Shown here: piece by piece, positions 8,064 through 25,634 of the stretch
Layout: each line of letters opens with the position of its first letter
Position numbering within the stretch: position 1 is the stretch's first letter
Virus record (IMG/VR): IMGVR_UViG_2700989508_000029
Source: a virus
Taxonomy: Duplodnaviria > Heunggongvirae > Uroviricota > Caudoviricetes
Length of the DNA: 32,863 nucleotides
Direction: 5' to 3' (one strand)
Position numbers and translations under genes: made by a program
The notes under the pieces: model-generated
Database searches by the model: none
The model's input: the letters and a program-made list of their open reading frames with translations, nothing else
What the model was told of the DNA's origin: nothing

Positions 8064-8074
8064 AACCCTCCTTA

Positions 8075-9855: not shown

Positions 9856-9917
9856 AAGTAGATAAAGTAAGTAAGATAAGTAAGTAAGATAACTAAGATA
9901 GATAAGATTAATAAGAT
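9856..9917. repeat. Degenerate TAAGATA/TAAGTAAG tandem microrepeat
   Basis: gataaagtaagtaagataagtaagtaagataactaagatagataagattaataagat. Confidence 0.6.
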
Positions 9918-9961
9918 CAGAATTCTCTTTCGGTGTCGCCTCTGGCTTTTCCACCGAAAAC

Positions 9962-10228
9962 AATTACACGACTACAGAATGTAGGAAGTGAAATTGTATT
10001 GAGGCTTAGTGAAATTACACGAGGAAAGCAGAGTGTAATTGAGCTTTAGCCGCTCTCTTCGAGTAATTACACAACTACAGAGAATAACGAGAGTTATTAA
10101 ATGTAGGAAGTGGAATTAAGAGGTAGAGAGTTACACATAAGCAATCAGTATGATTGGTTAGGTGATTACTCTTCTGCGCACAGCGCAATAGTATTTCTTC
10201 GTGGGCGTTACCGCCACGATAGTTACAC
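9962..10228. repeat. Cluster of (A)ATTACAC sites (about 6 copies, one inverted)
   Basis: AATTACAC occurs at 9962, 10013 and 10065, and GTGTAATT (inverted) at 10033. TTACAC/GTTACAC occur at 10131 and 10222. The larger unit AATTACACnACTACAGA...TGTAGGAAGTGnAATT is repeated at 9962-9994 and 10065-10118. Confidence 0.6.
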
Positions 10229-10350
10229 GAAGAAAGTAACGCTTTGCTTTCGGTGTGAGCGGAACGGGCCAGCCACGAAGCCCGAAAGGTAGCGGAGTAA
10301 GGCTGCTTGCCAGAGAGTGAAGCTAACGCCGGAAGGCAAAAGATCATATA

Positions 10351-10501
10351 TATATAGTATAAAGAATATTATTATGATCTAATTAATAATCTAATATAGT
10401 TTTATTAATAGTCTTATTGTAGTTCACAGTGACCTACCCCCTAGCTCACTATGACCTACCCCCTAGGTCACAGTGACCTATATAGTATAAAGAATATTAT
10501 T
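10351..10501. repeat. 23-bp perfect direct repeats flanking TGACCTACCCCCTAG repeats and a 15-bp palindrome
   Basis: TATATAGTATAAAGAATATTATT occurs at 10351-10373 and 10479-10501. TGACCTACCCCCTAG occurs at 10430-10444 and 10452-10466. The palindrome AGGTCAC-A-GTGACCT lies at 10465-10479. Confidence 0.7.
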
Positions 10502-10526
10502 TATATTATTTAATTATAGTATTGGT

Positions 10527-10626
10527 GGAACTCATTTCCTAGGTAGGTAGGAACTCATTTCCTAAGTAGGTAGGAAACCACTTCCTAGGTTACTTCCTAA
10601 ATAGATCGGAAATCATTTCCTAGGTG
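10527..10626. repeat. Iteron array: 4-5 copies of GGAAnnCAyTTCCTArGT (internal GGAA-N5-TTCC dyad), ~23-bp period
   Basis: Copies start at 10527, 10550, 10573 and 10608, with a partial copy at about 10593. Confidence 0.7.
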
Positions 10627-10641
10627 TTATTTATTCTTATC

Positions 10642-10700
10642 GGGTATCAGTTTTGATAGGGGTATCAGACTTGATAGGGGTAACAGAATTCTGTGGGGGT
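10642..10700. repeat. Iteron array: 3 copies of GGGGTAwCAGnnTTGATA, 18-bp period
   Basis: Copies at 10642-10658, 10659-10676 and 10677-10694, then a GGGGGTAG partial copy. Confidence 0.65.
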
Positions 10701-10866
10701 AGTTCACTATGACCTACCCCTAGCTCACTGTGAGCTACCGTTACATTCAATCATCTTCCGATGTGTAATATCGTTACATTCAATAATTAGTCTATGTAAC
10801 ATATCGTTACTACCAACTTTCTTACAAAGAGCATTTCAGATAGCTGAATGTAACCTCTCGTTACAT
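10701..10866. repeat. Third TGACCTACCCCTAG copy, AGCTCAC-T-GTGAGCT palindrome, and CGTTACAT/ATGTAAC sites
   Basis: TGACCTACCCCTAG is at 10710-10723 and the palindrome at 10722-10736. CGTTACATTCAAT occurs at 10739 and 10772. ATGTAAC occurs at 10794 and 10848, and CGTTAC(AT) at 10805 and 10859. Confidence 0.6.
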
Positions 10867-11669
10867 CCATTTGTCACATAGCACTCTGTGTAATGCCTTT
10901 CTATGTGTGTGCCATAATCCCCCCTATATTCCCTGTGTAAATCATAGAATATCCCTAACTTATTCCTGTGTAATTCCATACTAAAAATTCAATGAAAAAA
11001 GTAGCTTAAAAGTTCAATTCTTACTTTCTTCACTTTTACATCACTTTCGCAAATCCTTGTGTAATGCGGCTTACAGAGCACCATCAGAAATTGTTGGCTA
11101 AAAATTGTTCTGCTTGTTTCTTAATGAGTTTTCTTGTTTGTGCAAATTTTAAAATTTATTTTGTTTTTACAGCCTTATTTCGTGTAATGCGTGGCATAGC
11201 AAGCCCTTTTCTTGTGTTGTCAAGACATTTGGCAACGTTCAAACATCTGTTTAGAAATGCCAAATTGTTGATCTAACAAATAAACCTGTATAAACAGAAC
11301 ACCATTTAATCTATTCCCCTGTGTAATCCACTACATCACACGATAAAAACAAAAAACTTTTAATTATATTTCATAGCACACAAAAGTCAACAGAAGCCCT
11401 CTCGTGCTCCTACGTAAAAAATCCATCACTTTTCCCCTGATACATCAACTCAAGGCGTTCTATGTGTTCCTTAGTGCATATTACGATTATTATGTTAAAT
11501 GGATTTTGGCCTATATTTTGACCTGCACCCGCATAAACACTGGTTTCATCGCTTACAGCCCTTGTGAGACGTGGTGCTGTTTCTAGCATCTGATCCGACA
11601 TAAAACCGATCATTCTCGTGTTTAGTGAAAGTTTAGTGAGAGACATTACAGAAAGGCTTTCTGTGTAAT
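10762..11669. repeat. Dispersed (C)TGTGTAAT sites (at least 8 copies), inverse orientation of the 9962-10228 ATTACAC cluster
   Basis: Copies at 10762, 10886, 10933, 10966, 11058, 11182, 11319 and 11661. One reversed copy (ACTACACAGG, next to GTTACAT) lies at about 12331-12347. Confidence 0.6.
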
Positions 11670-12137
11670 GATTTAATAGGTAAAAACGATGTTGATTACG
11701 CAAGAAAATTCCTTGCTGATATTTGGGGATTCTGGATTTTCCAGATCGGGGGGCGCTGAAAATCGCGTTAAGCACTTCTCGCAATCTAGCCATAAGGGAA
11801 GGGATATAGGTATTTAGATGTATTTATAGCTAATTTATAGCTATTTATTTTTTATTTACCTTTATTAAAAATAACCTTATAAATCAATAAGATACATAAT
11901 TATCTGTTTATATTCTAATCAATTAAATCAAGTTTAATACCCTTAAATAACCTGAAAATAGCCTTAAATACCCCAATAATTAATTTTAAGGTTTTCCGTG
12001 TTCTCTTCTGCATTATGAAAATGCAAAATAAGGCACAAAACAAGCTCACATACGCATTAAACACACATCACCTATACATCCCTATGCCAAGCAATGAAAA
12101 CAGCGTTAGAATGCGTCCTGTTGCGTTCTGGAGATTT

Positions 12138-12296
12138 TCAGAAATCCTCTCTAAGCCATTTCAACTCACTAAGGAGTTTTCTTTCTTCGTTCTCTCGTTG
12201 CTTTCGCTCTAGCCAGGCTTTTCCCTCTGGCGTAGACAGGAACTTACGAGCGTGAATCTTGCGGTTATTACGTTTGATAGCTGCAATGTTTTTCAT
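12138..12296 (-). CDS. Unlisted small basic ORF (52 aa, MKNIAAIKRNNRKIHARKFLSTPEGKAWLERKQRENEERKLLSELKWLREDF)
   Basis: I translated this by hand. It has an ATG with an AGAGG SD about 8 nt upstream, and GTTACAT / CTGTGTAGT-type sites lie just upstream. It is below the 60-aa threshold of the ORF track. Confidence 0.35.
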   Translation of the reverse strand: MKNIAAIKRNNRKIHARKFLSTPEGKAWLERKQRENEERKLLSELKWLREDF

Positions 12297-12479
12297 CGTG
12301 TGCCTCTGTATTCATATGAAAATTAACAAGTTACATACTACACAGGGAGACTACGCATAAAACACAATACAAGTAAAGATACATTTTCAAGACAATAGGA
12401 GCCATAAAGCGCCTTTGATGGTTATACCAAAAAATAAGCGCCGTAGGCGTATCCACTAAAAAGGGCTTTTTCACAAAAG

Positions 12480-12842
12480 CTATGAAGTCTTAGCAGTTCT
12501 TCTCTTATCAGGCACCCGTTGTACTCCGGTGGACGAAACCGTGCTAGAGCTTGATTCTTTCCCGATCAAGTTAGGTTTTGAAGAGGTGGGCTTTAATCCA
12601 CTATGCACTTAAAACTCTTCCCATCATTTAGCCTGTTTATCCTCTGCAACGTCTCACGACGTGTAGCATCATTGGACACCGCGCCAGGTGTGGAACATCT
12701 TGCTAAGAGTTTTGGTAGAAGGTTTAGAGACGGTGGCACGTCTTCCAGCTTCAAAGGAACTTGTTACGAGGTTGAGCCTGGGAACTACTCGCCCATACGT
12801 GTTACACTACCAAAGCCCATAACAACGTATAGGCGTTTGTAA
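12480..12842 (+). ncRNA. Candidate structured non-coding RNA (hairpin cluster) next to the inter-element att
   Basis: A locally GC-enriched block in AT-rich DNA holds seven consecutive hairpins: 12548-12572, 12581-12620, 12649-12662, 12676-12691, 12727-12744, 12745-12781 and 12790-12836. Three G-T appositions (12549/12571, 12727/12744, 12750/12776) are wobble-compatible only on the + strand. Confidence 0.35.
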
Positions 12843-12898
12843 GTGATAACAGAAGATACAATTTCTTAGAGAAGTTAAGCTAAGTTATTGATTTTCTT

Positions 12899-12916
12899 AA
12901 TGGTGCGATAATAGGA
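12899..12916. repeat. Degenerate internal att copy (junction between the two elements)
   Basis: AATGGTG-CGATAATAGGA differs from AATGGTGCCGATAATAGGA by a 1-nt deletion. Its flanks (TTGATTTT.. / ..AAAACA) also resemble those of the 536-556 copy. Confidence 0.6.
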
Positions 12917-12978
12917 ACAAAACAAACAATAAAAATACATTGATATATAAAGACATTTTCCCATTACATCTTTGTAGA

Positions 12979-12998
12979 TACCCCCAAAAGTACCCCCA
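12979..12998. promoter_or_regulatory. Putative integrase arm-type sites (TACCCCCAAAAGTACCCCCA), distal arm of the P4-like element
   Basis: 19/20 identical to 31287-31306 beside the integrase gene, in the same orientation, with the same 12-bp spacing of the TACCCCCA octamers. Confidence 0.5.
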
Positions 12999-13257
12999 AA
13001 CAATTTTCTCTCACCACCATTTGCACATAAAGCAGCCATGTACAACTGGTAGTTGAACAGGCGGGTAGACCGTTCGTTCAGTAAATACCTGATATTTCCG
13101 CCAACGAGAAATTGCGTTGGCTGGCAGAGTGCAAATTTGCACGATAACCTAACCCATTGATTCTTTCGAAAACCCGCAATGCAGGAAGCCGGATAACACC
13201 ATTTTATAGCTCCGATCCCTTCAAAGTGAGGGGTAATTTGCCAAAACAGAGAGAGCA

Positions 13258-13545
13258 TTACTGTCTCTGGCAATCTTTATCGCGATAACGCCTGAAGTAC
13301 CCTCTCGCTTCCTCATCCATACCAAGAGCCGAATGAGTCCGCTTAACTGCCTGTCTTAAATCTCCGAATCTGTCTGTAGTTGCTGGTGGGCGTGCCGCCT
13401 TACGGATACATTCAGAGCGTCTGTTTGCTGCATGTTCACGTTCTTTATCGCCATCTGCCAGCATCATGACTTCTGCCCATCGTGCGGCAGCTCTCCGGTA
13501 TAGCCCTTTTGACTCCAGCTCTTCAGCTTTCCTGTCCTTTATCAT
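13258..13545 (-). CDS. PerC/Pch-family transcriptional regulator-like protein (95 aa)
   Basis: AEELESKGLYRRAAARWAEVM...REHAANRRSEC matches the PerC-family N-terminal pattern I recall (..LE..G.YRRAA.RW..V..). Confidence 0.65.
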   Translation of the reverse strand: MIKDRKAEELESKGLYRRAAARWAEVMMLADGDKEREHAANRRSECIRKAARPPATTDRFGDLRQAVKRTHSALGMDEEARGYFRRYRDKDCQRQ

Positions 13546-13578
13546 TTCTGCCTCTCAGATTATATAGATAAGCAAAAA

Positions 13579-13705
13579 GGTGTTGGTTCAGTTGGTTCAG
13601 TTGGTTCAATTTGTAAAGAGCGTTGTTTTTATTGTGTTTTTTCTAAAATATTGAACCAACATCAACTCATTTTGAACCAACACAGCCCAGCTCTGAACCA
13701 ACAAC
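13579..13705. repeat. Iteron module A (ori/crr-like): 3 tandem GTTGGTTCA, an AT-rich spacer, then 3 TGAACCAAC
   Basis: GTTGGTTCA is at 13582, 13591 and 13600. TGAACCAAC is at 13652, 13673 and 13694. The module is an inverted homolog of 22036-22153. Confidence 0.7.
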
Positions 13706-13755
13706 ACAGCGATAGATTTGCGATTGGTCCGTTATTTTCTGGCTGATATTTGAGC

Positions 13756-13790
13756 GTATAACAGTGTTATACAGTGGTATACTGTATGGA
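13756..13790. promoter_or_regulatory. Operator-like overlapping dyads (GTATAAC-AGT-GTTATAC; ATACAGT-GGTAT-ACTGTAT) upstream of the RHH gene
   Basis: Perfect 7-bp arms at 13756-13772 and 13769-13787. Confidence 0.4.
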
Positions 13791-13804
13791 TATTACTCAC
13801 TGAT

Positions 13805-14245
13805 ATGGTCTTTGCAATGAGCAAATCTAATCTGATCGCGTTCCGCATCCCATCTGAATTGCAGGATGAGTTTAATCGGTCTGTTCTCGCTTCTGGAGGG
13901 GATAAAACCTCCTGGCTTGTTGATGCGATTCGCATGAAGCTGGGACAGCCGGAAAAGTCTATTGATTCACGAATGCTTGGGCTGGTGGAGCGCATGGAAA
14001 AAGCCGCAGCATCGCTTATTGCCGGAAAGCCGAACATCCCACCAAAGCCATATAACGAAACGGCAGTTATAAAGATCATTGCCGATACCATCCGACAGGG
14101 ATTTGATAATGGGCGTGTGATAGCTGAACGGCTCAATGAAGCAGGCTACCAAACAAAAGCTGGTAAAGCGTGGGATAAAGACATTTACAGCGCGTGGAAG
14201 CGTCAGGATAACAATATTAAAAGAATCAATACGCTGCTTCAGTAA
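13805..14245 (+). CDS. RHH-domain DNA-binding protein with a C-terminal recombinase-like helical domain (146 aa; possibly starts at 13817)
   Basis: NLIAFRIPSELQDEFNRSVLASGGDKTSWLVDAIRMKL fits an RHH pattern. The C-terminal AERLNEAGYQTKAGKAWDKDIY resembles the recombinase-domain LN..G..T..G..W motif. Confidence 0.5.
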   Translation: MVFAMSKSNLIAFRIPSELQDEFNRSVLASGGDKTSWLVDAIRMKLGQPEKSIDSRMLGLVERMEKAAASLIAGKPNIPPKPYNETAVIKIIADTIRQGFDNGRVIAERLNEAGYQTKAGKAWDKDIYSAWKRQDNNIKRINTLLQ

Positions 14246-14274
14246 TTGATCAGTGTATAAATGATATTTATCGC

Positions 14275-15252
14275 TCAATCGCTCCCTTTCCGCCCTTCAG
14301 CTACAGGGTCGTTGTCGGCGATAACAAAACCTAAGTCCTGAGAGAATCTCTCTCGTGGGAATCCTTTAGCAGGTAAACCCATTGAATCATATCCACATCC
14401 GGGAACATTTGGTTTAGAGTCAATAAGGTCTGCAATTTGCCGAAGCCATGTTGATCCCGGACCAAGTCGTTTAACTAAGTACCAGATAATACAGATCGCG
14501 CTAAAAATCCTCTCGCAACTCTCTGGATGGAGATTAAGTCCGTCAAAGTATTCATTATCCGGTACTGGAACTCGGGGATGCTTTCTATTCCATATTCTGG
14601 AATGGTGAGCGCAACGATTCCTTATGAGATTAAGGCACTTCAACCATTTTGCAAATGTCTGCTTATTATCAATGCCAAAACGACGTATAATTTTCCCCTG
14701 CATATGACCATTAAGCATCGCATAATATTTAGACATCTGACCAAAATCCCAGGTCTCCACCGCCACCCAAAATGGAATCTCCTTGCCTTGGCTTCGATGC
14801 CATTCAATACAGTCATCTCTGCTTTCGTCTAATTTTACTTTTTGCTTATACACCCAATGCTCGAAGGCAGATGAGAATTTTGGATTAATGTATTTTGATG
14901 ACATGTAGGCAAGTGGATCATTGCGACCAACCTCATGCGCGATGACTGAACGAACATGAATCTCTATTCTTTCGATAGCATCAATCATCAAAAGACGCAG
15001 TTTTTTGTCAAAAAGATATAGATCGTACGTCTTCTCGAAACTGGTACCAGTAAGAAATCGGTCTGTTCTGTACGAAAGACCTTTATCTGTTGTCGCAATA
15101 ATTCTTGATGGGTACCAAAAACCTGACAATCGATAATATCCAACCTGCGACAGCTTACGTATCGCACGATTTCGATCATTGATAATCATGCCACGTTCAA
15201 GTAGCAATCCTAGCAATTCGTGATAGTCCTTATGAGGCTTTGCGGCAATCAT
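14275..15252 (-). CDS. Abi_2 family (AbiD/AbiF-like) abortive-infection protein
   Basis: Family hallmarks are present: YYRLSGFWYP, ERIEIHVRSVIAHE and LNLIRNRCAHHSRIWNR. The likely start is MIAAKPHKDY at 15252; the track ORF extends to 15297. Confidence 0.85.
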   Translation of the reverse strand: MIAAKPHKDYHELLGLLLERGMIINDRNRAIRKLSQVGYYRLSGFWYPSRIIATTDKGLSYRTDRFLTGTSFEKTYDLYLFDKKLRLLMIDAIERIEIHVRSVIAHEVGRNDPLAYMSSKYINPKFSSAFEHWVYKQKVKLDESRDDCIEWHRSQGKEIPFWVAVETWDFGQMSKYYAMLNGHMQGKIIRRFGIDNKQTFAKWLKCLNLIRNRCAHHSRIWNRKHPRVPVPDNEYFDGLNLHPESCERIFSAICIIWYLVKRLGPGSTWLRQIADLIDSKPNVPGCGYDSMGLPAKGFPRERFSQDLGFVIADNDPVAEGRKGSD

Positions 15253-15422
15253 AGTGGCGAAACAAAAGATAATAAAAGGCCCGACCGTGAAACTCACATG
15301 CCTGAAATCGGCGGCGGAGAAACAGAGGATCGGGCTCGGTTGCCTGTAACTCTATCCGAAGTTATCCACATGTCAATGCACAGTTACTTAGGAAACTAAC
15401 ATAGGTACTATCATCACTCACG

Positions 15423-15445
15423 AAAAACCACTATATGTGGTTTTT
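15423..15445. terminator. Bidirectional hairpin terminator AAAAACCAC-TATAT-GTGGTTTTT
   Basis: 9-bp perfect stem with built-in A/T tracts on both sides. Confidence 0.5.
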
Positions 15446-15725
15446 ATTCATATCGTTATCCACTACAGGCTGTGTCAATAACTTTTACCTATTAATTGGG
15501 TAATTTCTACATTTTCCTATGCTGGCTAGTTTCTCTACTGAAAAGTTGGCACTCCTTAATCGCTTTTCGGTTAATACTATCGGTCTTCATATTGCCAGCA
15601 GCATACGCCATCCGATAATTTCGATGCTACGCGCGCGTACTTGTCGCAAAATATCAGGCAAAGGCCAGATTCAGAACGTCGTGATAACCACCAGCACAAC
15701 ATGAGATGTCATGTAACACGATTTA

Positions 15726-16104
15726 TCACATCAGATACATGTGATTGGTGTACCCGCATAAAACATCGTCATAGCGCGTCCTGTGCGCATATACGCCGAT
15801 AATCAACACATCACCACCACTCTGTCTCGTGTAGAGAACAGTTTCATGGTATCCCCCGCCATCGTGTGCGTACTGGTCGGACGTAGTTGCAAAATTTTTG
15901 CAACTGATACCCCTCGCGCGCGTACTGGTCACGAAATTGGTGTTTTGCTGTGGCAGTGATATCAGAAAAATCTTCCTGTTTCACATAAAGCGGATATGCG
16001 CGTACTGTAACGGCCCCATCAACGGGGATCGGATTTGAAATCCCGACCCAAGCTATGTACCAAATGCCATGTCTTGGATATATGATGATTGCCATTCTAA
16101 ACAA
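15726..16104 (-). pseudogene. Frameshifted small gene, possibly a RelE/ParE-like toxin remnant
   Basis: Two overlapping minus-strand ORFs in different frames (15844-16104 and 15726-15932). The C-terminal piece ...YHETVLYTRQSGGDVLIIGVYAHRTRY resembles the RelE/ParE C-terminal beta-strand/His-Arg pattern. The family assignment is weak. Confidence 0.3.
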
Positions 16105-16121
16105 CGCTAAAGGGGGTTGGT

Positions 16122-16736
16122 GTGAGCAGAAAAGATACTAAAGAATTGCTAACTATCTGCATGGTGTACTTTTCAATTTATTTTTGTGCATACATGATAG
16201 TCCCAGATGAGTTTGAACATGGCAGTATTATTTATTCCATAACATTCTATTTTTTAGAGCTAACACCAATTTTGGCTATCCTTTTGGCAATACATATTTA
16301 TTTTTCCTTAAAAAAAGAATCGACTAATTGGGAGAAGGTATGGAGAGACAGAGGATTTCTAACATCACCTAAAGATGATGCATATGAGAGTGATTTTTCT
16401 GACTTTATAACAAACTACTACTCCAGCGAACAATTCAAAAATAGACTGTCTGATGTTTGGGAAACAGCAATGTATTCCATAGGGATTATATTATTGATAC
16501 TTACTGGTATTGCTCAATATGTTTTTAACATTGACTTATCATTAAATCCTGAAAATTTAATATCGCCATTGATTTTTGGTGAGATATTGATCTTCTCATT
16601 CGGAATTTTCTTGAGTGTTGTTCTCTGCTCATTATGCAAACTACTGACTAACAGGTATCCAGGTGAAGCAAGGAGAGCAAGAAAGGCAAATCCATATTAT
16701 CTTTTATTTCCTAATGGAGACAGCAGAGATATCTAA
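16122..16736 (+). CDS. AT-rich 4-TM membrane protein (204 aa) at the position SieA occupies in P22
   Basis: GTG start with a strong SD (AAGGGGG). There are four hydrophobic helices. The gene converges on the end of the gp16-like gene. Confidence 0.6.
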   Translation: MSRKDTKELLTICMVYFSIYFCAYMIVPDEFEHGSIIYSITFYFLELTPILAILLAIHIYFSLKKESTNWEKVWRDRGFLTSPKDDAYESDFSDFITNYYSSEQFKNRLSDVWETAMYSIGIILLILTGIAQYVFNIDLSLNPENLISPLIFGEILIFSFGIFLSVVLCSLCKLLTNRYPGEARRARKANPYYLLFPNGDSRDI

Positions 16737-16754
16737 GCCATCCATGGCTACCAG

Positions 16755-18860
16755 TTATTGAGCTTCTTTTTGTGATGCCTGTGCGACTCTGGTGAGCGAT
16801 TGTGTGACCGTACTGATCGCTCTGTCATATGCTGTGCTACCTTTTGGCGTATTTGCCAAACGTAACAAGGCATTTCGTATAACAGGGCTTTCGTATGCCT
16901 TCGCGGCTCCGCCTACGGCACCAGCAGCAGGAACAACAAACGCAGCCGTTTTTAGCATCCCCGCTAATACTGCTGCGTTTATGATGCCACCACCAACTAA
17001 CAATCCATAAAGCTGCTGACCATTTAAGTTTTGAACGTTCGCTTTTGCCGCGTGTCTTGTATCGTTGAGGTATTTAATAACGCCGTCCAGTTCCTTTCCA
17101 TGTACGCCTTTAAAGAAAGTTGCTGATTGCTTCCTGTTCCGGTGTAACGCATTAATAAACTTCTCAACACTGATATTTCCAGACGGATCAGTCGCCTTAT
17201 CTACAGCATTCTGAACTATGGCTGCTCGTGCGTTTTGCCTACCATTGTCATCCAGAAGCCTGTAAAGCTGAGAACGTTCTGATGGGCTTTGGCTAAAAAC
17301 GAGTTTTGTTACATCCTCAGGCGTGGCCTTGCCGCTGGCTATTGCCTTTTGAACGCGCGTTCTTCCCATCATGTCATTGAATTTAGACCATGAGCGATCA
17401 ACCCTTGCCATATTAATGGCTTCGTCTGCTCCAAGATTTTTGGCTACGGCTTTTTTCATATCCGCCGTATATGCCTTGTAGATAATATCGCTGGCTTTCT
17501 GGAGCGTATCTTTATCAACAGTGTCAGATGACGCCATAAACCGCTTTCGAAGATCGGTTCTGTTTTCCCTCGCCAGACGCAGGTCATTTGGTCCGCTGGT
17601 GATATCGTCTTTAAATTGCTGCAAGACTTTTACCGCGGCTCTATCCTGAGATTTACCCGGGCGGCTTAACACAGCAATCTGATTGTCGATAGCTTTTACC
17701 GTGTTTGAGAGATCGACAGGGGTATCCCCCATAGCGTCAATTATGCGGTTATATCGCTTTCCTGCTGCCTCAATGAATTTTTGTTGCCCTTTAGTCGCAG
17801 ATTCATAAAGCTGTTTATCAGAAATGCCACCCAGACCATCGCTAAATGTTCTGACTAAATTTTCTCGTGCTTGTTGTTGATTCAGCCGATTCTTACCGGT
17901 TCCAAAAAAAGGAACTCTTTCGCCTAATGTCTGAGCCTGACTCTGCATAAAGGTTTTATCTTTCAGCATGTCACTGGTCATTAACGGCAGATTTCTTTCC
18001 GATGCAAAGTCGACAGCAGCCTTTGCTTCAGGCGACATATCACCACGAACAGCCCTCGAAACCGCACTCGCTGTATTTTCCAGCCCCTTACCAATACCAC
18101 CAATGCCAGCAGAAATTACCGTTTGTAACGGATCAATATCTTCTCCACCAGCAAGGCTAGTGGCTCCCTGTAGTGCTAAATCTGTAGCTGCTGATTTTCC
18201 TATGGCACCAAGCACCGTTCCAGCCCTGCCCGCTGGTGTAAACGCCAGCGCATTAGCCAGAAACGATGCCACGTCTTGCGGCGATAAACCCGGCTTGTTC
18301 AGAGCATAATCACCGGATGGCAGGGAAACGATAGTGTTACCCTTCTCATCCTGCCTTAATTTCGCTCCCATGCTCTGAAGAATCTTTTCCTGAGATGCGT
18401 CAGAGCCGAAAAGTTGAGACCATCGAGCTTTTAGAGCATCCATGCTGAGTGAGGTTAACTCTGGGGCAAGGTCGACATTTTGCAGTCTCTCCATCTCTGG
18501 AGTCATTCGGCTTTCGCCTGTTATAGCATCGCGCATCGCAGCCCCAAGACTGGCTCCCTGTTCTGCTGAACGCTCAAGCCCCTCTCTTTGCTGAGTAGCT
18601 AACTTTGCATACCCTGACGCAAGAGAATTATCAGATGATGTATGTTGAATATTTTGAGTTGCTGATTGGGATCGGTCTATTTCATTCGTTGATGGTAGTG
18701 GATAGGCAGCATAAAAAGCCTGCTTAGCCTGCTCTACACTTTCTCCGGCTTGCGGGGCCACGACTTCATTGAAGTATTGCTCCTGAGCCTGCGCTTTTTG
18801 TTCTGGTGCTAACGCCTGATACTGTGGAGAGGCGATAACATCTTTCCATGCTTTAGCCAT
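16755..18860 (-). CDS. P22 gp16-like DNA ejection/transfer protein (701 aa)
   Basis: It is the third gene of a 225/473/701-aa series, which parallels P22 gp7/gp20/gp16 (about 229/471/609 aa) in order. Its ATG overlaps the upstream stop (TAATG). The N-terminus MAKAWKDVIASPQYQALAPEQKAQAQEQYF is typical of podovirus internal/ejection proteins. Confidence 0.6.
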   Translation of the reverse strand: MAKAWKDVIASPQYQALAPEQKAQAQEQYFNEVVAPQAGESVEQAKQAFYAAYPLPSTNEIDRSQSATQNIQHTSSDNSLASGYAKLATQQREGLERSAEQGASLGAAMRDAITGESRMTPEMERLQNVDLAPELTSLSMDALKARWSQLFGSDASQEKILQSMGAKLRQDEKGNTIVSLPSGDYALNKPGLSPQDVASFLANALAFTPAGRAGTVLGAIGKSAATDLALQGATSLAGGEDIDPLQTVISAGIGGIGKGLENTASAVSRAVRGDMSPEAKAAVDFASERNLPLMTSDMLKDKTFMQSQAQTLGERVPFFGTGKNRLNQQQARENLVRTFSDGLGGISDKQLYESATKGQQKFIEAAGKRYNRIIDAMGDTPVDLSNTVKAIDNQIAVLSRPGKSQDRAAVKVLQQFKDDITSGPNDLRLARENRTDLRKRFMASSDTVDKDTLQKASDIIYKAYTADMKKAVAKNLGADEAINMARVDRSWSKFNDMMGRTRVQKAIASGKATPEDVTKLVFSQSPSERSQLYRLLDDNGRQNARAAIVQNAVDKATDPSGNISVEKFINALHRNRKQSATFFKGVHGKELDGVIKYLNDTRHAAKANVQNLNGQQLYGLLVGGGIINAAVLAGMLKTAAFVVPAAGAVGGAAKAYESPVIRNALLRLANTPKGSTAYDRAISTVTQSLTRVAQASQKEAQ

Positions 18861-20281
18861 TAATCACCCCATAGTGAAGAAAAGTTACTGCTGGCTGCTG
18901 GCTGTGATACCTGCTCAGATTGCGGCAATGTCTGCGACGAAGAAGAAGTTCCTCTGTCAACTGCTGAAATAACCCGCAAAGCATCATAAGCTCGACCAGA
19001 AGCAGCTTTCAGCGAATTGAACTGGTTTTCCATCTTCCGGCGCTTGGTATCAATGGTTTTTGTGGAGTCGCCAGGCTGAGGGAAATACATTTGATAATAT
19101 TTTGACATTTCAGCAGGTACGATGGCTGCCCCTGTTTCCTGACGGAGTATTGCCATTATTGCGTCATTAGCATTAACAACGTATTGCTGTTCTGTTGGGC
19201 TGAGCGTTAAGTTAGCCAGCGTCCCATTACCCAAAGCATTATTAATGATCGCCACTCGCTGTGGGCTAAGCTGGTCTTTCAGTGTATCTATTGAATCAAG
19301 AGCATCCCTAACCCTGTATGCAAATCCAGCAGCTTTTTTAGCCCCTTCTGGCGACTTTTCCATGATCTTTTGGGCTGTTGGCAAAGCTATTGGACGAAAC
19401 CCATCTCCAGATATTGGCTGGTTTAGTTTTCCCTGCTCTTCACTTCCGTCTGTGTAGTATTTTGTGACAGTGCCATCATCGTTTTCTCTAACACTCATTA
19501 ATTTTTTGGCGTTTGTATTAATTCCAGCCGCTGCCGCAAATGCCGCCGCCCCCTCTGGATCCGCCTTTAACATTTGAGCGTACTGATTGTAATTCTGCAT
19601 TGCTGCTGTTGGTGCATATGCTGACGTTAACGCATTTGCTCGGCTAATATCCTGCCCTCTCGCCTGAAGTGCTTCGCCAGCCTGATTGCTGCGGATTGTC
19701 TCTGCCAACTTGCCACGCTCAATATCCCGACCTTCCATTTGATCTTTGATATCGAAATACTTCTCATGACCGAGAGAAAACAGTGCCATACTACCAGCAA
19801 GCCGCTGGAACCCCTGTGGATCATTAACATGCATTTCGGCAACAGACTCAGGAGAAATTCCCAAGCGACGCATTTCATCTTCGTTATCTGCTATGAATTT
19901 TCCAAATGCCCCAGTTCCGAGCGAAGATGCGATTTGAGCACTAGTCGCAAGATGACCAATAGAATTTCTCTGGTCGTCATCAATAAAGCCCATCCCTTTC
20001 TGAACGCTTTCAAATTCTTCTGGATACTCAGAAATAAGACTGCGCATTTTGTTTCTGTCTCCAGACTCAAAAGCCCCGGCATATGCTTTCTGAAACTCTG
20101 CTTTACGCTGTTGTTGACGTGCCTGCTGATTAATCTCAGCAACGCCTCTTAGCCCCTGTAGCGCCATTAAACCTACGTTTGGCTGCTGCTGATACTGCAC
20201 AGGCTGAGGAACGGAAGAACGAGGAGCATTATCATTTTGCGGTGCCATGCTAGGCAGCCCGCCAAGTTGCCATGTCGCCAT
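18860..20281 (-). CDS. P22 gp20-like DNA ejection/transfer protein (473 aa)
   Basis: Size and position fit within the gp7-gp20-gp16 order. It is Q-rich, and both its start and its stop overlap the neighbouring genes. Confidence 0.6.
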   Translation of the reverse strand: MATWQLGGLPSMAPQNDNAPRSSVPQPVQYQQQPNVGLMALQGLRGVAEINQQARQQQRKAEFQKAYAGAFESGDRNKMRSLISEYPEEFESVQKGMGFIDDDQRNSIGHLATSAQIASSLGTGAFGKFIADNEDEMRRLGISPESVAEMHVNDPQGFQRLAGSMALFSLGHEKYFDIKDQMEGRDIERGKLAETIRSNQAGEALQARGQDISRANALTSAYAPTAAMQNYNQYAQMLKADPEGAAAFAAAAGINTNAKKLMSVRENDDGTVTKYYTDGSEEQGKLNQPISGDGFRPIALPTAQKIMEKSPEGAKKAAGFAYRVRDALDSIDTLKDQLSPQRVAIINNALGNGTLANLTLSPTEQQYVVNANDAIMAILRQETGAAIVPAEMSKYYQMYFPQPGDSTKTIDTKRRKMENQFNSLKAASGRAYDALRVISAVDRGTSSSSQTLPQSEQVSQPAASSNFSSLWGD

Positions 20282-20958
20282 TAGAATCCAAGCCCCCCAA
20301 CAAGACCAATAAGCCCACCACCAATAGCGCCGGCCGCAGTTCCTATTCCAGGAACAACGGAACCAAGTTGCGCACCCGCTAAAGCGCCTGATGCTGCCCC
20401 ACCAATACCACGCGCAAGACTGGATGGCTGCTGCGCCTGACCTGCACGAATAGCGCCAAGCCCCTGCAAGAGTTGTCCGGTATTATTGGCGTAGTTTTGC
20501 CCTGCCGTTGCCTGCCCTGATGCCGCATTCATCCCGACATTTAGCAGGTTTCCATAATTTTGCATTTGCCCACTAAGCCAATTGTTATAAAGCATGGGCG
20601 CAATGGAAGATAACTGGTTACTGGTAGCTGTTGAGCCAAGCCCCCCGGTAGCTTCTGCTGAGACAAGGTTCTGATAACGGGCCTGATCTGCCTGTGTTTT
20701 ATATAAACCAGAACCAAAGAAATCATTCGCTGCTTTATTCTGCCCTTCCAGAGTCATCAGTCCTTGTAGTTGTTGTAAAGCAGGCAATCCGACTTCTGCA
20801 TACGGCTTGAGATTATTCATCACCGTATTCCACTGCTCGCGCTGCAAATCAATTGCCTGCTGCTGGGCCTTCGCCTGAGCTTTAGAGGCACCACCATCAC
20901 CGCCTTTTTCGTATACGGCACGATTGAGATGTTTATGAGCTATATGGGTAATTAACAT
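20281..20958 (-). CDS. P22 gp7-like DNA ejection/transfer protein (225 aa)
   Basis: The N-terminus ...RAVYEKGGDGGASKAQAKAQQQA... resembles the P22 gp7 N-terminus I recall (..YPEKGGKGG..). The body is Q/G/N-rich with a Gly-rich hydrophobic C-terminus. Confidence 0.6.
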   Translation of the reverse strand: MLITHIAHKHLNRAVYEKGGDGGASKAQAKAQQQAIDLQREQWNTVMNNLKPYAEVGLPALQQLQGLMTLEGQNKAANDFFGSGLYKTQADQARYQNLVSAEATGGLGSTATSNQLSSIAPMLYNNWLSGQMQNYGNLLNVGMNAASGQATAGQNYANNTGQLLQGLGAIRAGQAQQPSSLARGIGGAASGALAGAQLGSVVPGIGTAAGAIGGGLIGLVGGLGF

Positions 20959-21413
20959 TCGCTGAATTCCTTATATTGTTGCCGAGTTAACTGATAAAGC
21001 GTTACGCCGACGGGTTTACCACATCTGATATAAGCATCATCAAGGTGACCAACACGGGTAGCGCCAAGCAAACGGATAATTGCCCGTCCGTATTTCGTGG
21101 TGTCAGGAACCATAGTGATGCTGTTAAGGAATGGTGAGTTTTCGAGAAGCCATTTGCAGAATAATCGATGTCCTTGCAGTGCATATTCACCACGGAATCC
21201 GGGGTCGTACACCGCATGGCATTCAACAACGCTATGCCAGAAGCTACGCACTTCATGAACGCCAGCCAGCACCAATCCTTCGTAGATGCCGAGATATACC
21301 GCATCAGGCTTGATGTAGTACGTGTGCCCCGGCTCAACAATATTTTCGGTATTGCCTGGCTCGTTAAGAAAGGCCTGTAATCGCACAGGGTTATCAATAA
21401 ATTTTAGTTCCAT
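20952..21413 (-). CDS. P22 gp14-like (DUF2824-type) protein (153 aa)
   Basis: It lies immediately upstream of the gp7-like gene with a 7-nt overlap, and its size matches gp14. The call is by position and size only. Confidence 0.45.
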   Translation of the reverse strand: MELKFIDNPVRLQAFLNEPGNTENIVEPGHTYYIKPDAVYLGIYEGLVLAGVHEVRSFWHSVVECHAVYDPGFRGEYALQGHRLFCKWLLENSPFLNSITMVPDTTKYGRAIIRLLGATRVGHLDDAYIRCGKPVGVTLYQLTRQQYKEFSEC

Positions 21414-21429
21414 GCGATGCCATCCATTT

Positions 21430-21591
21430 TCACATACAGCCTGCCAGCGCCTTATCTATTAACCCTCGTGCAATTTCATGCAGAGTTGGCGCTACTCCAA
21501 TTCCTGATTTTTTACGCTGCTCTTCCTGAATTTTCTTTATCGCTTCCATTTGCTTCTCACTTATCAATACCGGCTTTACTGAAATAGCCAT
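21430..21591 (-). CDS. Unlisted small RHH (Arc/Mnt/CopG-like) protein (53 aa, MAISVKPVLISEKQMEAIKKIQEEQRKKSGIGVAPTLHEIARGLIDKALAGCM)
   Basis: I translated this by hand. A strong SD (AAGGGGG) lies 5 nt before the ATG, and the sequence fits a beta-alpha-alpha pattern. It is the first gene behind the LexA-box promoter. Confidence 0.45.
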   Translation of the reverse strand: MAISVKPVLISEKQMEAIKKIQEEQRKKSGIGVAPTLHEIARGLIDKALAGCM

Positions 21592-21604
21592 AACGCCCCC
21601 TTAG

Positions 21605-21630
21605 AACTGTATAAAACAACAGTTATTATA
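21605..21630 (-). promoter_or_regulatory. TATAAT -10 element abutting a LexA-type SOS box (AACTGT-TGTTTTAT-ACAGTT)
   Basis: The minus strand reads TATAAT-AACTGTTGTTTTATACAGTT. The CTGT-N8-ACAG core is perfect, about 15 nt upstream of the SD of the RHH gene. Confidence 0.5.
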
Positions 21631-21685
21631 GTTTCACAAATCGCAATATTCATCATAGTAATTGCAAAATATGAAACAAATAGCA

Positions 21686-21719
21686 CAAAAAAATGCCACC
21701 GCTCAGTAGCTGGTGGCAT
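21686..21719 (-). terminator. Rho-independent terminator insulating the alpha operon/iteron region from the ejection-protein operon
   Basis: On the minus strand, an ATGCCACC-N11-GGTGGCAT hairpin is followed by T7. Confidence 0.6.
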
Positions 21720-22035
21720 CGTTCTGTGTGTCAGGTTTTGACAGGTTTTTTATGGACTCTAAAAACTATATTTATGGTGTCGCATTACTCTTCACGGCAG
21801 GCGCTTTTCAGTTCTGCCCTTGCTTCTGGCTCCATTGGTAATTTGATTCGCGATCAGCTATGCGGATGGTTTGCTGAACAGGCATAACAACTTCTCAGAG
21901 GCTGTTTTTTGAACTGCGAAAATTTCGTAGTGCTCACTTTCAAAAACGTCACGCCCTTGTACACAGGATTTTACGAAAGTCTCGTAAAACACTCTCTGAT
22001 GCCAGCCAGGTGTTGTGCGCATCAATTCAGTCACA

Positions 22036-22153
22036 TTGTGTTGGTTCAAAATACCGTGTTGTTGGTTCAGTGTTGGTTCAATAAAAAGAATAAAATCCTT
22101 ATAAAACAATACACTTTACAAATTGAACCAACTGAACCAACTGAACCAACACC
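22036..22153. repeat. Iteron module B (crr-like), inverted homolog of 13579-13705, just downstream of the primase-helicase gene
   Basis: GTTGGTTCA is at 22040, 22061 and 22072. TGAACCAAC occurs three times in tandem at 22124-22150. The terminal ~40 bp are the exact reverse complement of 13579-13620. Confidence 0.7.
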
Positions 22154-22175
22154 TTTTCTACGCACATGAAGAAGC

Positions 22176-24935
22176 TCATTCTTCAGATGAGTTATAATCT
22201 CCTGGCTGGTAATTGAGTACATAAACGTTTATTTGTCGTCCCTGAATACGTGGTGATTTTCTTTGGTATCCACGACCGCTGTTTGGTGGGGTTAGCATCC
22301 CGGCTTTTTTCAACACTTCAGCAAACTGTTTTGCGTTGAAACCACATGCGATCTCCTTTTCAAATGTGGCCGGGAATGTGTAGAAAATCATTGGGCTTTC
22401 GTCATGTTCTCCACGCTGACGGTATCCGGCTAAATCTTTGATGGGCAAATCTGCCGGGCTGTATGGAAATGGTGCAAAACGGCTAAGCCCATAGGCATTA
22501 AGAAATGCCTCCGTTTGTTCAATAATCTGCTGATGCTCTTTGTTACCTGTGCCGAACTCGCGCAACCATGCGTTATAGCTGTGCTGTATCGCATCACGGC
22601 ATGTCTGAGCATCCCAGCCTGTTACAACCTCGCCTAACAACAATGCGGCCTCCATAATGGCAAATCGCGCGGCTACACGGTGAACCTGCTCACCATAATC
22701 GGATGGGATCAGGCTTCTCCATCTGCTTTCGCAATCACGAACGGTTTTAATAGCCTGTTGCTGGTGGTGTGCCAGCCATTTAATCCACTCACGCCCGGAC
22801 GCGCCGTGGTGATGCTGGTAAGCGTCTTTCAGTGCGTCTGCGTGCTGTTTTCCGTTCTGGTAATCGTGAAAGCGTACTGCTTTACTCAACGGAATATTCA
22901 GCAGTCGCACCAGTTGCCCGGCTTTGGTTTTTCGCCCGGAAGTAGCGATAAATGTTTCTAAATCCATTTCTCCGGTGCTGATTGCCACTGTACGCCAGCG
23001 TTTTAGATCCCGGTTTCCACCATCTTTAGCGCCTTGCAGTTTCCCTACACCGTTAAATAACGCATAGGCAGACTGTGAAACGCTGACAGGATCAGCGCCC
23101 TGACCAACTTCATCAAGCGGCATTAGTCCGTCATTGTGGGCGGCGGCCTCATTTGCCAGCCCCAGCGCGGTTCCGTACCACGTCAGCCGCAGTAAATCAG
23201 GGTTGCCGTATAAGCTGCTCGCCACGTTTGCCGTGGTGGTCTTACCTGCGCTCGACTGCTCATAGAAATGAATGCCGAACCCGTCAGCGCCCACCAGCCC
23301 AATCAATGGCGCTGCCAGTGCTGCGCCGATCCCGGTCATCATTGAATAGTTACCAAAGGCCAGACGCGCCACGTTATCACGCCAGCTTTTCGCGCTCCCT
23401 GAGACGGTATATCCGGCTGCGGCTGAGCTTCTCCCGCTGAACAGCACAGGATTTTCAGGTGTTCCGATGATTTCCCCATCAGGCATGATGTACGCTCCGC
23501 ATTGCCAGCCAGTGGCATGAGCAACACGCCACAATTCACGAGAGCCACTGCGTTGTAGCCAGTCTGCCAGTATTGCTCTGAGGCTGCTTTTGGTCGTGAC
23601 ATTTACCCCACCAGCTTTAAGTGTGCGCCATCCTTCACGTTCACCAATATCAGCCAGTGGAATGGCAGCGGTTGTCGGCGTTTCAGAACCAAACGACAGC
23701 CAGCGAAGAATGAGATACTGGTCTTTATCGTCTCTGCCAGTACCGATAACGCTTAACGGAGAACATAACCAGCTTTCGTTATTGATGATTTCTCCACTCT
23801 GGCTGTCAGCTCTCGGAGATACCCAATAAATACCATCCTCGCGGCTTTCTATTCTTGGTTTCAGTGGGTCGGTATCCATAACCTTAAAATCGCTTCCCTC
23901 AATGGTCTGTGGCTCCTGTTTCACGCCATTACCCTGTGGTTGGTACATTGACTTATTGAACGCTTCTGTGGCGCATTTAATGCCGTGTTTTTGGTGGTAA
24001 TCATTCCAGTCTGCTTTGTGATCTGTCGGGGGTAATGCCACCCATCCAGAAACAGATAAAGCTGCTTTTTCTGCTGCTATTCTCCCCGTGTTTTGTCTTC
24101 CTTCGCTGTGGTCGTTATCCGCAGCAATGATGATTTGTGCTGAAGGAAATTTATCCCGCAGTACCTGGGCGACATATAACAGGTTCCCGGCATCAATCGC
24201 CGCCACTGTCAGCGCCTCTGGACGAATTAAATGGGCAGATAATGCCGTTGCCAGACCTTCTGCGATTAAGATGCTCTGTGTTGTTTCTGGTGCGTTTATG
24301 GCGTGATATGCCCCCCGCTTTGCTGAACCTGTCAGGAGTCTTTTTTCACCATGTGAGGTAATAGTCTGTGCTGCTGTTACTGCGCCGGATTTATCCACCA
24401 GCGCCAGCAACAGAGATCCATCGGGCAACACGGGGAATGTAAAATCACCTACCCCTTTCGCAACCAGATAATCAGATTTGCCGTTTACAGCCTTTCTGCG
24501 CATGTCATCAAACTGACGGGAAAACGTATCCCGTCTTTGTTGTTCGTCCTTCTCTGCCCTTTTCAGGCGCTCCTGTTCGCGTCGCTGGCGCTCGGTTTCC
24601 AGTTGTTCCCGTTTCTGGCTGGTGGCTTCTGGTGTTTCCGTTGTCCGGTAATCAATACCCAGAACATCAGCGGCAAGAAGCGCCGCCTCTGTTGTGTCGC
24701 AGTTATTTACGCGTTTAATTAAATCCAGCCCATCACCAGCGCCGCACTGATTACAGATGAAGCTACCGCGCCCGTTGTCATCGAACCGGAATCGATCTTT
24801 GCCCCCACATGCAGGGCAGGGAGCATGACGGCGCGGAGAGTCAGGGACATTTATGTTCAGGCAGCCCAGCACATGAGGCCAGTTGTTTTCAGACGCACTG
24901 ATAACCTGACGGATAAGATCAATGTTTCGCATCAC
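22176..24935 (-). CDS. P4 alpha-like primase-helicase (Zn-ribbon + Toprim + DUF927/P-loop), 919 aa
   Basis: Cys4 zinc ribbon: CPACGGKDRFRF...FICNQCG. Toprim motifs: IAEGLATALS and IIIAADNDHSEG. P-loop: EQSSAGKTT. Confidence 0.9.
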   Translation of the reverse strand: MMRNIDLIRQVISASENNWPHVLGCLNINVPDSPRRHAPCPACGGKDRFRFDDNGRGSFICNQCGAGDGLDLIKRVNNCDTTEAALLAADVLGIDYRTTETPEATSQKREQLETERQRREQERLKRAEKDEQQRRDTFSRQFDDMRRKAVNGKSDYLVAKGVGDFTFPVLPDGSLLLALVDKSGAVTAAQTITSHGEKRLLTGSAKRGAYHAINAPETTQSILIAEGLATALSAHLIRPEALTVAAIDAGNLLYVAQVLRDKFPSAQIIIAADNDHSEGRQNTGRIAAEKAALSVSGWVALPPTDHKADWNDYHQKHGIKCATEAFNKSMYQPQGNGVKQEPQTIEGSDFKVMDTDPLKPRIESREDGIYWVSPRADSQSGEIINNESWLCSPLSVIGTGRDDKDQYLILRWLSFGSETPTTAAIPLADIGEREGWRTLKAGGVNVTTKSSLRAILADWLQRSGSRELWRVAHATGWQCGAYIMPDGEIIGTPENPVLFSGRSSAAAGYTVSGSAKSWRDNVARLAFGNYSMMTGIGAALAAPLIGLVGADGFGIHFYEQSSAGKTTTANVASSLYGNPDLLRLTWYGTALGLANEAAAHNDGLMPLDEVGQGADPVSVSQSAYALFNGVGKLQGAKDGGNRDLKRWRTVAISTGEMDLETFIATSGRKTKAGQLVRLLNIPLSKAVRFHDYQNGKQHADALKDAYQHHHGASGREWIKWLAHHQQQAIKTVRDCESRWRSLIPSDYGEQVHRVAARFAIMEAALLLGEVVTGWDAQTCRDAIQHSYNAWLREFGTGNKEHQQIIEQTEAFLNAYGLSRFAPFPYSPADLPIKDLAGYRQRGEHDESPMIFYTFPATFEKEIACGFNAKQFAEVLKKAGMLTPPNSGRGYQRKSPRIQGRQINVYVLNYQPGDYNSSEE

Positions 24936-25290
24936 CGTACCCCACGTGGTCTATAGCGTTTGCGATATGGCTAACCAGCATCTGCCACTTGGTTATTCCG
25001 TAATCAGTCAGCATGCCATCATTGTTTAGCCACATATCAAATTCAGCGGTTGTCGCAAGTTTCCACTTATCGCCGTGGACAGTCCTCATTGCTGGGTACA
25101 TGAATGCGCAAATCAGATCACAAACATCTGACGGCTTCAGAGATGTAGTAATGGTGCGTCCCTCTGGCGTCTGAATTGCCATTTTCTCTTCACCAGTAGA
25201 ATGAAGGTTATGAATCCACACAGCACCAGCAATCTTTGCCACCTGCTCTCCGATTGCGGAGCTAAGCGCCATTTCTGCATTTTCACGCAT
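24919..25290 (-). CDS. Hypothetical protein (123 aa), early operon
   Basis: It overlaps both neighbours (coupled translation). It shares a weak YP...DG.LTD.G..W motif with the ORF upstream. Confidence 0.55.
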   Translation of the reverse strand: MRENAEMALSSAIGEQVAKIAGAVWIHNLHSTGEEKMAIQTPEGRTITTSLKPSDVCDLICAFMYPAMRTVHGDKWKLATTAEFDMWLNNDGMLTDYGITKWQMLVSHIANAIDHVGYGDAKH

Positions 25291-25624
25291 GAGAACCTCC
25301 CGCTACAGTTGCGCCCATGTCATTAACCATGCTTTGCCATATCTCACGCCCGACGTCAGTCAATCCGTCCTTAGTGACGCAACGCTCAAGAAGCTCGATC
25401 CCCACGGTTTCCCACTGCGGGTAGAACACTTTCATGGCTGCCAGTGTGTAGCTATCGATCAGGCTGCGAACGCCTTTTACTCCATTGACGATTTCCACAC
25501 GTACGGCCTCGCCGTCCGCATCAACCATGAAATAGTCCCCGCCGCTGGTGGAGGTAATGTGGTTATACAGTGCCGACGCATACTTATTTGCCAGCGCATT
25601 CAGTCGGAAATTTTTAGTAATCAT
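25283..25624 (-). CDS. Hypothetical protein (113 aa), early operon
   Basis: Coupled ORF. No family recognised. Confidence 0.55.
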   Translation of the reverse strand: MITKNFRLNALANKYASALYNHITSTSGGDYFMVDADGEAVRVEIVNGVKGVRSLIDSYTLAAMKVFYPQWETVGIELLERCVTKDGLTDVGREIWQSMVNDMGATVAGGSHA

Positions 25625-25634
25625 GGCTCCATCC

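Follow-up and report, generated by a model that had tools for sequence, protein, structure and literature searches.

A probable replication origin in two inverted halves around exchangeable cargo in a phage satellite of the EcCIMP1 type

The Rep proteins of the Staphylococcus aureus pathogenicity islands (SaPIs) are initiator-helicases which read iterons by means of a C-terminal winged helix. SaPI origins lie right after the rep gene and possess 6-12 iterons, the halves of which flank an AT-rich centre in opposite directions; the loading of two hexamers is thought to occur there (PMC9371898). The same origin design has been reported for the phage-inducible chromosomal islands (PICIs) of Gram-negative bacteria, and the pri-ori segment of one of these, EcCICFT073, drives plasmid replication in E. 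coli (PMC6092414). Another, EcCIMP1 of E. coli MP1, excises only on induction of its helper phage, Kapi1, and is transferred by this phage; the scoring scheme of de Sousa et al. would put it in a class which is not confidently annotatable (PMC11773190). In this paper we discuss a stretch of 32,863 nucleotides (IMG/VR virus record IMGVR_UViG_2700989508_000029; the whole stretch is called the window below) carrying an island of the EcCIMP1 type, in which the iterons of the probable replication origin are found as two inverted modules, A and B, on either side of a zone of late and accessory genes. Iteron origins right after pri, the EcCIMP1 element and the dynamic "late zone" downstream of the primase (PMC10111431) are all already known. 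In the searchable literature a PICI origin that is split or duplicated is nowhere described, and the papers returned for the 9-mer from which the modules are built are unrelated; the putative origin split into two inverted full copies bracketing the late zone, the series from compact to split forms across genera and a residue-level signature of specificity are not found in it.

An earlier note on this DNA, made from its letters alone, had described two inverted modules, each with three tandem iterons, an AT-rich spacer and three dispersed iterons. This anatomy was confirmed, with spacers of 43 bp and 44 identical outer nucleotides. The modules and the adjoining gene for the primase-helicase (Pri-Rep) are located as follows.

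13582-13702, no strand: module A, the second, inverted copy, with three tandem iterons, a 43-bp spacer and three spaced iterons
13582-13608: tandem array of module A, GTTGGTTCA three times with a 9-bp period
13609-13651: spacer of module A, 43 bp, 79% AT
13652, 13673 and 13694 (to 13702): dispersed iterons of module A, TGAACCAAC with a 21-bp period
22040-22150, no strand: module B, mirror image of module A and putative origin module adjoining the primase gene
22040, 22061 and 22072, plus strand: dispersed iterons of module B, GTTGGTTCA
22081-22123: spacer of module B, 43 bp, 84% AT
22124-22150: tandem array of module B, TGAACCAAC three times
22000-22010, minus strand: conserved motif of the origin centre, CCTGGCTGGCA, inward of module B, with the cargo starting beyond it
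22176-24935, minus strand: Pri-Rep, 919 residues, with Pfam Zn_Ribbon_Prim, Toprim_3 and DUF927 followed by a C-terminal domain
22221-22475, minus strand: candidate iteron-reading C-terminal domain (codons 821-905), proposed from co-variation
22245-22262, minus strand: candidate specificity segment R892-K-S-P-R-I897

The 9-mer TGAACCAAC has 12 exact copies in the window, all 12 of them inside modules A and B (ca. 115 bp each), where about 0.25 copies are expected by chance (2 x 32863/4^9; our own arithmetic, assuming uniform composition). If one mismatch is permitted the number of matches rises to 20, compared with 7.45 +/- 3.1 in shuffled sequences, none of 100 shuffles reaching 20. A search of the module against 50,697 phage records gave a single match, a weak one in a 106-kb Klebsiella phage record, so that at the sensitivity used these iterons are carried by none of the listed phage records. 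The two modules, 8.4 kb apart, form an inverted repeat of 55 nucleotides with 95% complementarity (13575-13629/22103-22157), and the spacing of their dispersed copies is unequal, being 21 and 21 bp in module A and 21 and 11 bp in module B. The first iteron of module B is located 25 bp from the stop codon of the primase gene (22176-22178, minus strand). A scan for sigma-70 promoters revealed none around module A or module B; its one find was a terminator-like hairpin (21695-21710, minus strand). The region of some 600 bp between module B and the next gene, a gp14-like one (21414-22039), contains one small annotated open reading frame (ORF) and is kept in EcCIMP1 and in L001, a circular relative discussed below; a perfect 8-bp inverted repeat, TTTTACGA-GACT-TTCGTAAAA, is found within it near 21970-21990.

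The sample of relatives comprised 77 loci encoding Pri-Rep relatives, one genome per species. In nearly all of the approximately 55 with usable downstream sequence, which belong to many Enterobacterales genera, an iteron module begins 25-60 bp after the primase stop codon. The earlier note had set module B just downstream of this stop codon, a position which is thus common well beyond the window. The iterons fall into eight classes sharing one architecture (TGAACCAAC, TGAGACAAC, TGAACCGAC/GAACCGAC, TAACCCGT, TAACCCAC, TACCCGAC, AAACCGACC and TGGGAYAA), and every class is paired with its own sequence in the last 100 or so residues of Pri-Rep. Between the TGAGACAAC class (n = 5 proteins) and the TGAACCAAC class (n = 29), only seven of 919 alignment columns discriminate, and five of these are residues 892, 893, 894, 895 and 897; the sequence of segment 892-897 is RKSPRI for TGAACCAAC proteins and GRV-RE for TGAGACAAC proteins. 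Loci of both classes show approximately 80% identity to the window. For the TAACCCGT class all 20 separating columns are within residues 821-904. Thus, where two bases of the iteron change, five residues of one short segment change with them, as expected if this segment contacts the iteron. Because the position of the module is kept in some 55 relatives and the iterons co-vary with the C-terminal domain, we consider it very likely that the 9-mers are binding sites of the island's Pri-Rep and mark its replication origin, a role that the earlier note had proposed for them.

The two arrays are not always separated. In about half of the relatives (ca. 27) both are contained in one compact unit of approximately 300 bp, and the separation of clusters, which the earlier note had named as a requirement of P4 replication, is therefore not a requirement of the design here. 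The order in the compact form is tandem array, AT-rich spacer, dispersed iterons, CTGGCTGGCAGT motif, dispersed iterons, second spacer, and a tandem array in the opposite orientation. The experimentally validated origin of EcCICFT073 follows the same plan with an iteron of its own, TGTCTACC, and like the compact relatives of the window island it has inverted outer tandem arrays, here 190 bp apart. In the split form the arrays are 0.4-9 kb apart; it was found in at least 14 relatives of other genera, in the window, in EcCIMP1 and in four other E. coli copies. All E. coli copies sampled are split, with distances of 1.8, 6.4, 8.4 and 9.05 kb between the arrays. When eleven split elements are compared, conservation in the distal module (A) is 94% for the iteron columns and 74% for the other columns, and in the proximal module (B) 97% and 69%, respectively; this equal conservation indicates that the distal module is maintained and is not a decaying duplicate. 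Most split loci, and also some of the compact loci, keep the flank ACCTTTTTGCTTATATATA beyond the tandem array.

The CTGGCTGGCAGT motif, which is the consensus of CCTGGCTGGCA, lies between the two arrays in compact origins, and in the window, L060, L020, L035 and L061 it is the last common sequence before the cargo. It resembles the E. coli Chi sequence; exact Chi (GCTGGTGG) is present at the motif in L035 and L061, and in the second spacer in L004. Chi at the origin could protect concatemers from RecBCD.

The relative with the shortest distance among the E. coli copies, L001 (NZ_CP148430.1), is a circular "plasmid" of 12,152 bp from a chicken E. coli strain, in which 1.8 kb separates the two modules. 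Its integrase is a different one, an ejection gene is truncated, and nearly all of the cargo is deleted. Either this record is that of an episome replicating after excision, or the excised form was what was assembled.

The DNA between the arrays differs from one relative to another, as the earlier note had foreseen in suggesting that relatives could swap cargo there. The proteins encoded in the cargo of split loci are nearly all singletons, wide recurrence being limited to the PerC gene and the gene for a 146-residue protein beside the distal module. In the E. coli copies the P22-type ejection genes are retained and the module-A end changes, carrying Abi_2 and SieA-like genes, ImmA/IrrE, or small helix-turn-helix (HTH) genes. 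Pfam searches of the cargo of other genera revealed tape-measure proteins, SLT-domain proteins, a Dit-like tail protein and a spike with the gpV Apex motif, as well as a Fic protein, a P4-type "Beta protein" and a DUF2971 protein; a baseplate-hub-like match is weak, covering a short stretch (E 2e-6). The most direct comparison is provided by two loci of Lonsdalea britannica, L013 (split, 5.9 kb) and L046 (compact, 120 bp), the flanks of which are 93-97% identical. The differences between them are confined to the stretch from the dispersed iterons of module 1 to the outer tandem array; the exchanged segment is bounded by the iteron arrays themselves. This resembles the defence hotspots of P2 and P4, where variable genes, including those for abortive infection and superinfection-exclusion-like functions, are situated between conserved flanks. 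Unlike in those hotspots, the conserved flanks are here the iteron arrays of the putative origin itself, and defence genes are found in the cargo alongside helper-derived genes for ejection, tape-measure and tail-tip proteins. Proteins of the tail tip, or ones that are expelled from the virion together with the DNA, recur in the cargo, in the window (16755-21413) and in L021, L055, L035, L020 and L060. This suggests that the satellites supply their own ejection and tail-tip proteins, matched to the type of helper.

Residues 403-814 of Pri-Rep match the Rep protein of SaPIbov1 (8TCH, E 3.2e-11) and, more weakly, Cch (5DGK). Since its DUF927 helicase is related to SaPIbov1 Rep, the closest known system is the Pri-Rep origin of the PICIs and SaPIs, as in SaPI1, SaPIbov1, SaPI5 and the Gram-negative EcCICFT073, and not that of P4. 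The likeness extends to the position of the site immediately 3' of the primase-helicase gene and to its three plus three opposed iterons around a spacer of 79-84% AT, and at every sequence-level feature module B is a standard PICI/SaPI-type origin. In the PICI/SaPI system the helicase loads itself and its C-terminal domain sets the iteron specificity (PMC9371898, PMC6092414); here co-variation points strongly to residues 821-904, and most of all to 892-897, as the candidate for that function. The window island differs in having two full inverted copies of the putative origin 8.4 kb apart with late and accessory genes between them, in an iteron of nine nucleotides compared with 5-6 in SaPIs, and in a primase domain of the Toprim (DnaG-like) type.

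The reading we prefer, with a probability of roughly 0.7, is that the modules are the Pri-Rep sites of an EcCIMP1-type satellite, whose origin is present in two halves around swappable cargo. We infer the course of events to be as follows. The helper phage would induce the island, leading to its excision, and Pri-Rep would bind TGAACCAAC with its C-terminal domain. On the analogy of SaPI Rep, the AT-rich spacer of module B would melt, helicase hexamers would be loaded and the Toprim domain would prime synthesis. Module A would be the other iteron array of the same origin, present here as a full inverted copy 8.4 kb away. As this copy has an AT-rich spacer of its own, it would offer a further set of binding sites and perhaps another site of initiation; it would also be bound, and would act either in that way or as the partner half of the origin. 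The zone between the arrays, with its helper-derived ejection and tail genes and its defence genes, would be exchanged between islands by recombination in the conserved flanks, the anchors being the primase gene and its array on one side and the tandem array with its flank on the other.

A more far-reaching proposal is that the origin works as two protein-bound halves which tolerate any length of DNA between them, that it is itself the site of cargo acquisition, and that the split halves are both complete origins whose firing amplifies the enclosed genes. We give this extension little credence.

Several observations weigh against the preferred reading. The co-variation classes are partly clades, and phylogenetic non-independence inflates the signal; the tight localisation of the differences to residues 892-897 argues against pure drift. 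The C-terminal domain gave no Pfam hit, and its profile found nothing among the PDB sequences. AlphaFold returned a predicted local distance difference test (pLDDT) score of 40 for this domain alone and 51 when 45 homologues were supplied, which is too poor for a call on the fold, and Foldseek against the PDB gave nothing below E 0.1, the best matches being 5vfy (a relaxosome accessory protein of pCW3, E 0.17) and 8tch (E 0.39). At low model confidence, the order of the predicted secondary structure elements (strand, helix, helix, strand, hairpin, strand) agrees with a winged helix having residues 892-897 in the hairpin. In 11 relatives the proximal module alone is present in the 10 kb available, so module A may be dispensable; att (attachment) repeats marking the island ends were sought in these single-module relatives and none were located, nor were any in control loci. 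The second spacer of most compact origins is GC-rich, and the second array need not be a site of melting. Finally, neither an origin nor iterons are mentioned in the paper on EcCIMP1 (PMC11773190).

Two other functions can be considered for module A. In phage P4 the alpha protein unites a DnaG-type primase, a helicase and a C-terminal DNA-binding domain in one polypeptide (PMC2777425). The P4 record (NC_001609) bears out what the earlier note had said of this phage: crr directly follows the alpha stop codon, ori is 4.7 kb off, and both are made from the octamer TGTTCACC. P4 crr consists of two direct 120-bp repeats, each with two tandem copies (9-bp period), a spacer and inverted copies, which is much like the layout of the modules, and in both elements one cluster follows the gene while a second is kilobases away. 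Moreover, the primase domains are homologous (Pri-Rep residues 8-362, 33% identity, E 2e-41), and the iterons of modules A and B are equally conserved. Module A could accordingly be the cis-required partner of a strict P4-type bipartite origin, looped to module B, with both needed. We regard this as possible but unlikely. The alignment of Pri-Rep with alpha shows no similarity past the primase domain, in either the helicase or the C-terminus, and the earlier note's description of an alpha-type protein therefore stands for the primase domain and fails for the helicase, which in alpha is of superfamily 3 (D5-like) and is accompanied by a winged-helix origin-binding domain. The iteron is TGAACCAAC and not the type 1 octamer of P4 ori and crr, the modules are inverted whereas the crr repeats are direct, and the island has no sid, delta or psu gene. 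About half of the relatives have contiguous arrays, 11 others show a single module within 10 kb, and module B alone holds all the features of a SaPI/PICI origin. P4 ori/crr is thus a good analogy for the locus and not a sign of family membership. It is also quite unlikely, in our judgement, that module A is mainly a control element, at which Pri-Rep regulates perC or a downstream promoter, or which limits copy number by pairing with module B, as in the handcuffing of plasmid iterons. Such a role would agree with the conserved TATA-rich box and downstream gene found after the second tandem array in most split and some compact loci, and with the GC-rich second spacer of compact origins, which offers no obvious melting site; the lack of a predicted sigma-70-type promoter speaks against it, as do the AT-rich spacer (79% AT in the window) and origin-like geometry of module A in the window and other split loci.

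The two remaining alternatives, both raised by the earlier note, concern the segment as a whole. A long and nearly perfect inverted repeat around cargo which differs between relatives could be taken for the terminal repeats of a transposon or mobile cassette carrying ejection and defence genes. We find this scarcely credible and have rejected it: no transposase or recombinase is present among the annotated ORFs between the modules, and the modules are confined to island context, 987 of 989 places being chromosomal and the other two belonging to a circular island record. The repeats are composed of the primase's own iterons, one of them is fixed at the primase stop codon in all relatives, and in compact forms the arrays abut without cargo. 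Recombination between the 44 identical outer bases could also invert the segment, as a switch or for the formation of concatemers in the manner of the yeast 2-micron plasmid. The junction which an inversion would create was used as a query against all complete E. coli genomes, 576 of which contain these sequences; none covers at least 80% of the query, and the best places in the listed records cover only the module-B half (61%). There is no invertase gene, and we consider this explanation very improbable. The rejection applies to fixed states; a transient, low-frequency inversion during replication may take place.

The remaining features of the island, read from its outer ends and then through the bracketed zone, are listed below.

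12894-31443, no strand: whole island, assigned to the EcCIMP1-type PICIs, ca. 18.5 kb, with att-like repeats at both ends
12894-12923 and 31414-31443: att-like repeats, the latter within tRNA-Thr (31420-31495)
30040-31254: int, in the minus-strand reading of the island
29408-29611: alpA, in the minus-strand reading of the island
16755-21413, minus strand: P22-type block inside the bracket (Pfam DUF2824, P22_gp7, Inj_translocase; PHROGs 651, 598, 917, 770)
20952-21413, minus strand: gp14-like DUF2824 protein
20281-20958, minus strand: gp7, DNA-ejection protein
18860-20281, minus strand: gp20, DNA-ejection protein
16755-18860, minus strand: gp16, DNA-ejection protein
13805-16736, no strand: variable accessory end of the bracket, swapped for other genes in EcCIMP1 and other E. 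coli copies
16122-16736, plus strand: SieA-like membrane protein
14275-15297, minus strand: Abi_2 abortive-infection protein
13805-14245, plus strand: 146-residue protein, which recurs beside the distal module in other genera
13258-13545, minus strand: PerC-family regulator gene (Pfam PerC, E 3e-33), next to module A on its outer side, with a conserved TATA-rich box before it

On the minus strand the island begins with genes for an integrase, AlpA, a 144-residue protein, an AntA/B antirepressor, an Ash-family protein and several small ORFs. These are followed by the 919-residue primase-helicase, module B, the P22-type genes, the SieA-like, Abi_2 and 146-residue proteins, module A and PerC. The right end of the window consists of proA and tRNA-Thr (31420-31495). 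By its co-oriented int, alpA and pri genes, its size of approximately 18.5 kb (within the 10-20 kb range of Gram-negative PICIs) and its att site in tRNA-Thr, the island is a Gram-negative PICI, and thus a phage satellite, of the EcCIMP1 type at tRNA-Thr/proA; its helper dependence is taken from EcCIMP1. It is EcCIMP1 itself or a near variant, being 98% identical to it over window positions 20121-31610 (int to gp20), and the two share the tRNA-Thr/proA site, the P22-type genes after the primase, the terminal PerC gene and both inverted modules approximately 8.4 kb apart. The distal cargo is different: EcCIMP1 has a transglycosylase-type variant of gp16, a 699-nucleotide ORF and a small HTH gene, whereas the window has the genes for the SieA-like, Abi_2 and 146-residue proteins.

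Matches to the Rfam families C4 antisense RNA (27354-27441, minus strand, 79.5 bits) and isrK (27504-27581, minus strand, 67.1 bits) are both within the region called as the Ash-family ORF, and indicate that the island carries an RNA immunity module of the P4/P1 type, a further likeness to P4.

The 146-residue protein is also encoded beside the distal module in L013, L020, L021, L026, L060 and L061. Between its start and the module there are short direct repeats, GTAAGACA in two or three copies in other genera and TGTTATAC/TGGTATAC here (13757-13790). To our reading its N-terminus has the look of a ribbon-helix-helix, Pfam giving no hit, and the protein may be a repressor which regulates its own gene where the cargo zone ends. 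We also considered it as the reader of the iterons, which is unlikely, as it is missing from many iteron loci and different direct repeats precede the module.

One relative departs from the usual arrangement. L034, from Yersinia pekkanenii, has three copies of the iteron region within 6 kb, approximately 5.7 and 1.1 kb upstream of the end of the primase match and just downstream of it, and its primase match is approximately 1.1 kb longer than usual. A protein of this species annotated as "HNH endonuclease domain-containing protein" (P0068) matches the C-terminal domain of the primase. The locus may have arisen by insertion of a homing endonuclease or by tandem duplication of the 3' end of the gene together with the origin.

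Copies of the tRNA 3'-end are found at 532-561, 12894-12923 and 31414-31443, showing that two islands are inserted in tandem. The second island (532-12894), at the same tRNA-Thr att site, has its own integrase (612-1976, plus strand) and encodes a Dit-like tail protein (2057-2770), a capsid E protein (4937-5965), an HTH_36 protein (8075-8791) and a protein of 609 residues without a Pfam hit, the sequence of which has the coiled-coil look of a tape measure. An unrelated set of repeats at 10419-10741, consisting of five 22-bp units (GTAGTTCACAGTGACCTACCCC) and four units of approximately 32 bp (10513-10625), looks like another origin.

If the split halves do both fire, possibly before excision, the dosage of the ejection and defence genes would be boosted at the time of helper induction. 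If module A is dispensable, the finding shrinks to the duplication of an origin which serves as an anchor for recombination. An origin with a self-loading helicase may function with its arrays kilobases apart, as P4 ori/crr does. The putative code in residues 892-897 might serve to study or re-engineer origin specificity and the incompatibility of co-resident satellites. For a widespread family of Enterobacterales PICIs, the bracketed late and defence zone provides a sequence landmark for the cargo of EcCIMP1-type elements, which are at present hard to annotate, and thus aids in finding their defence genes.

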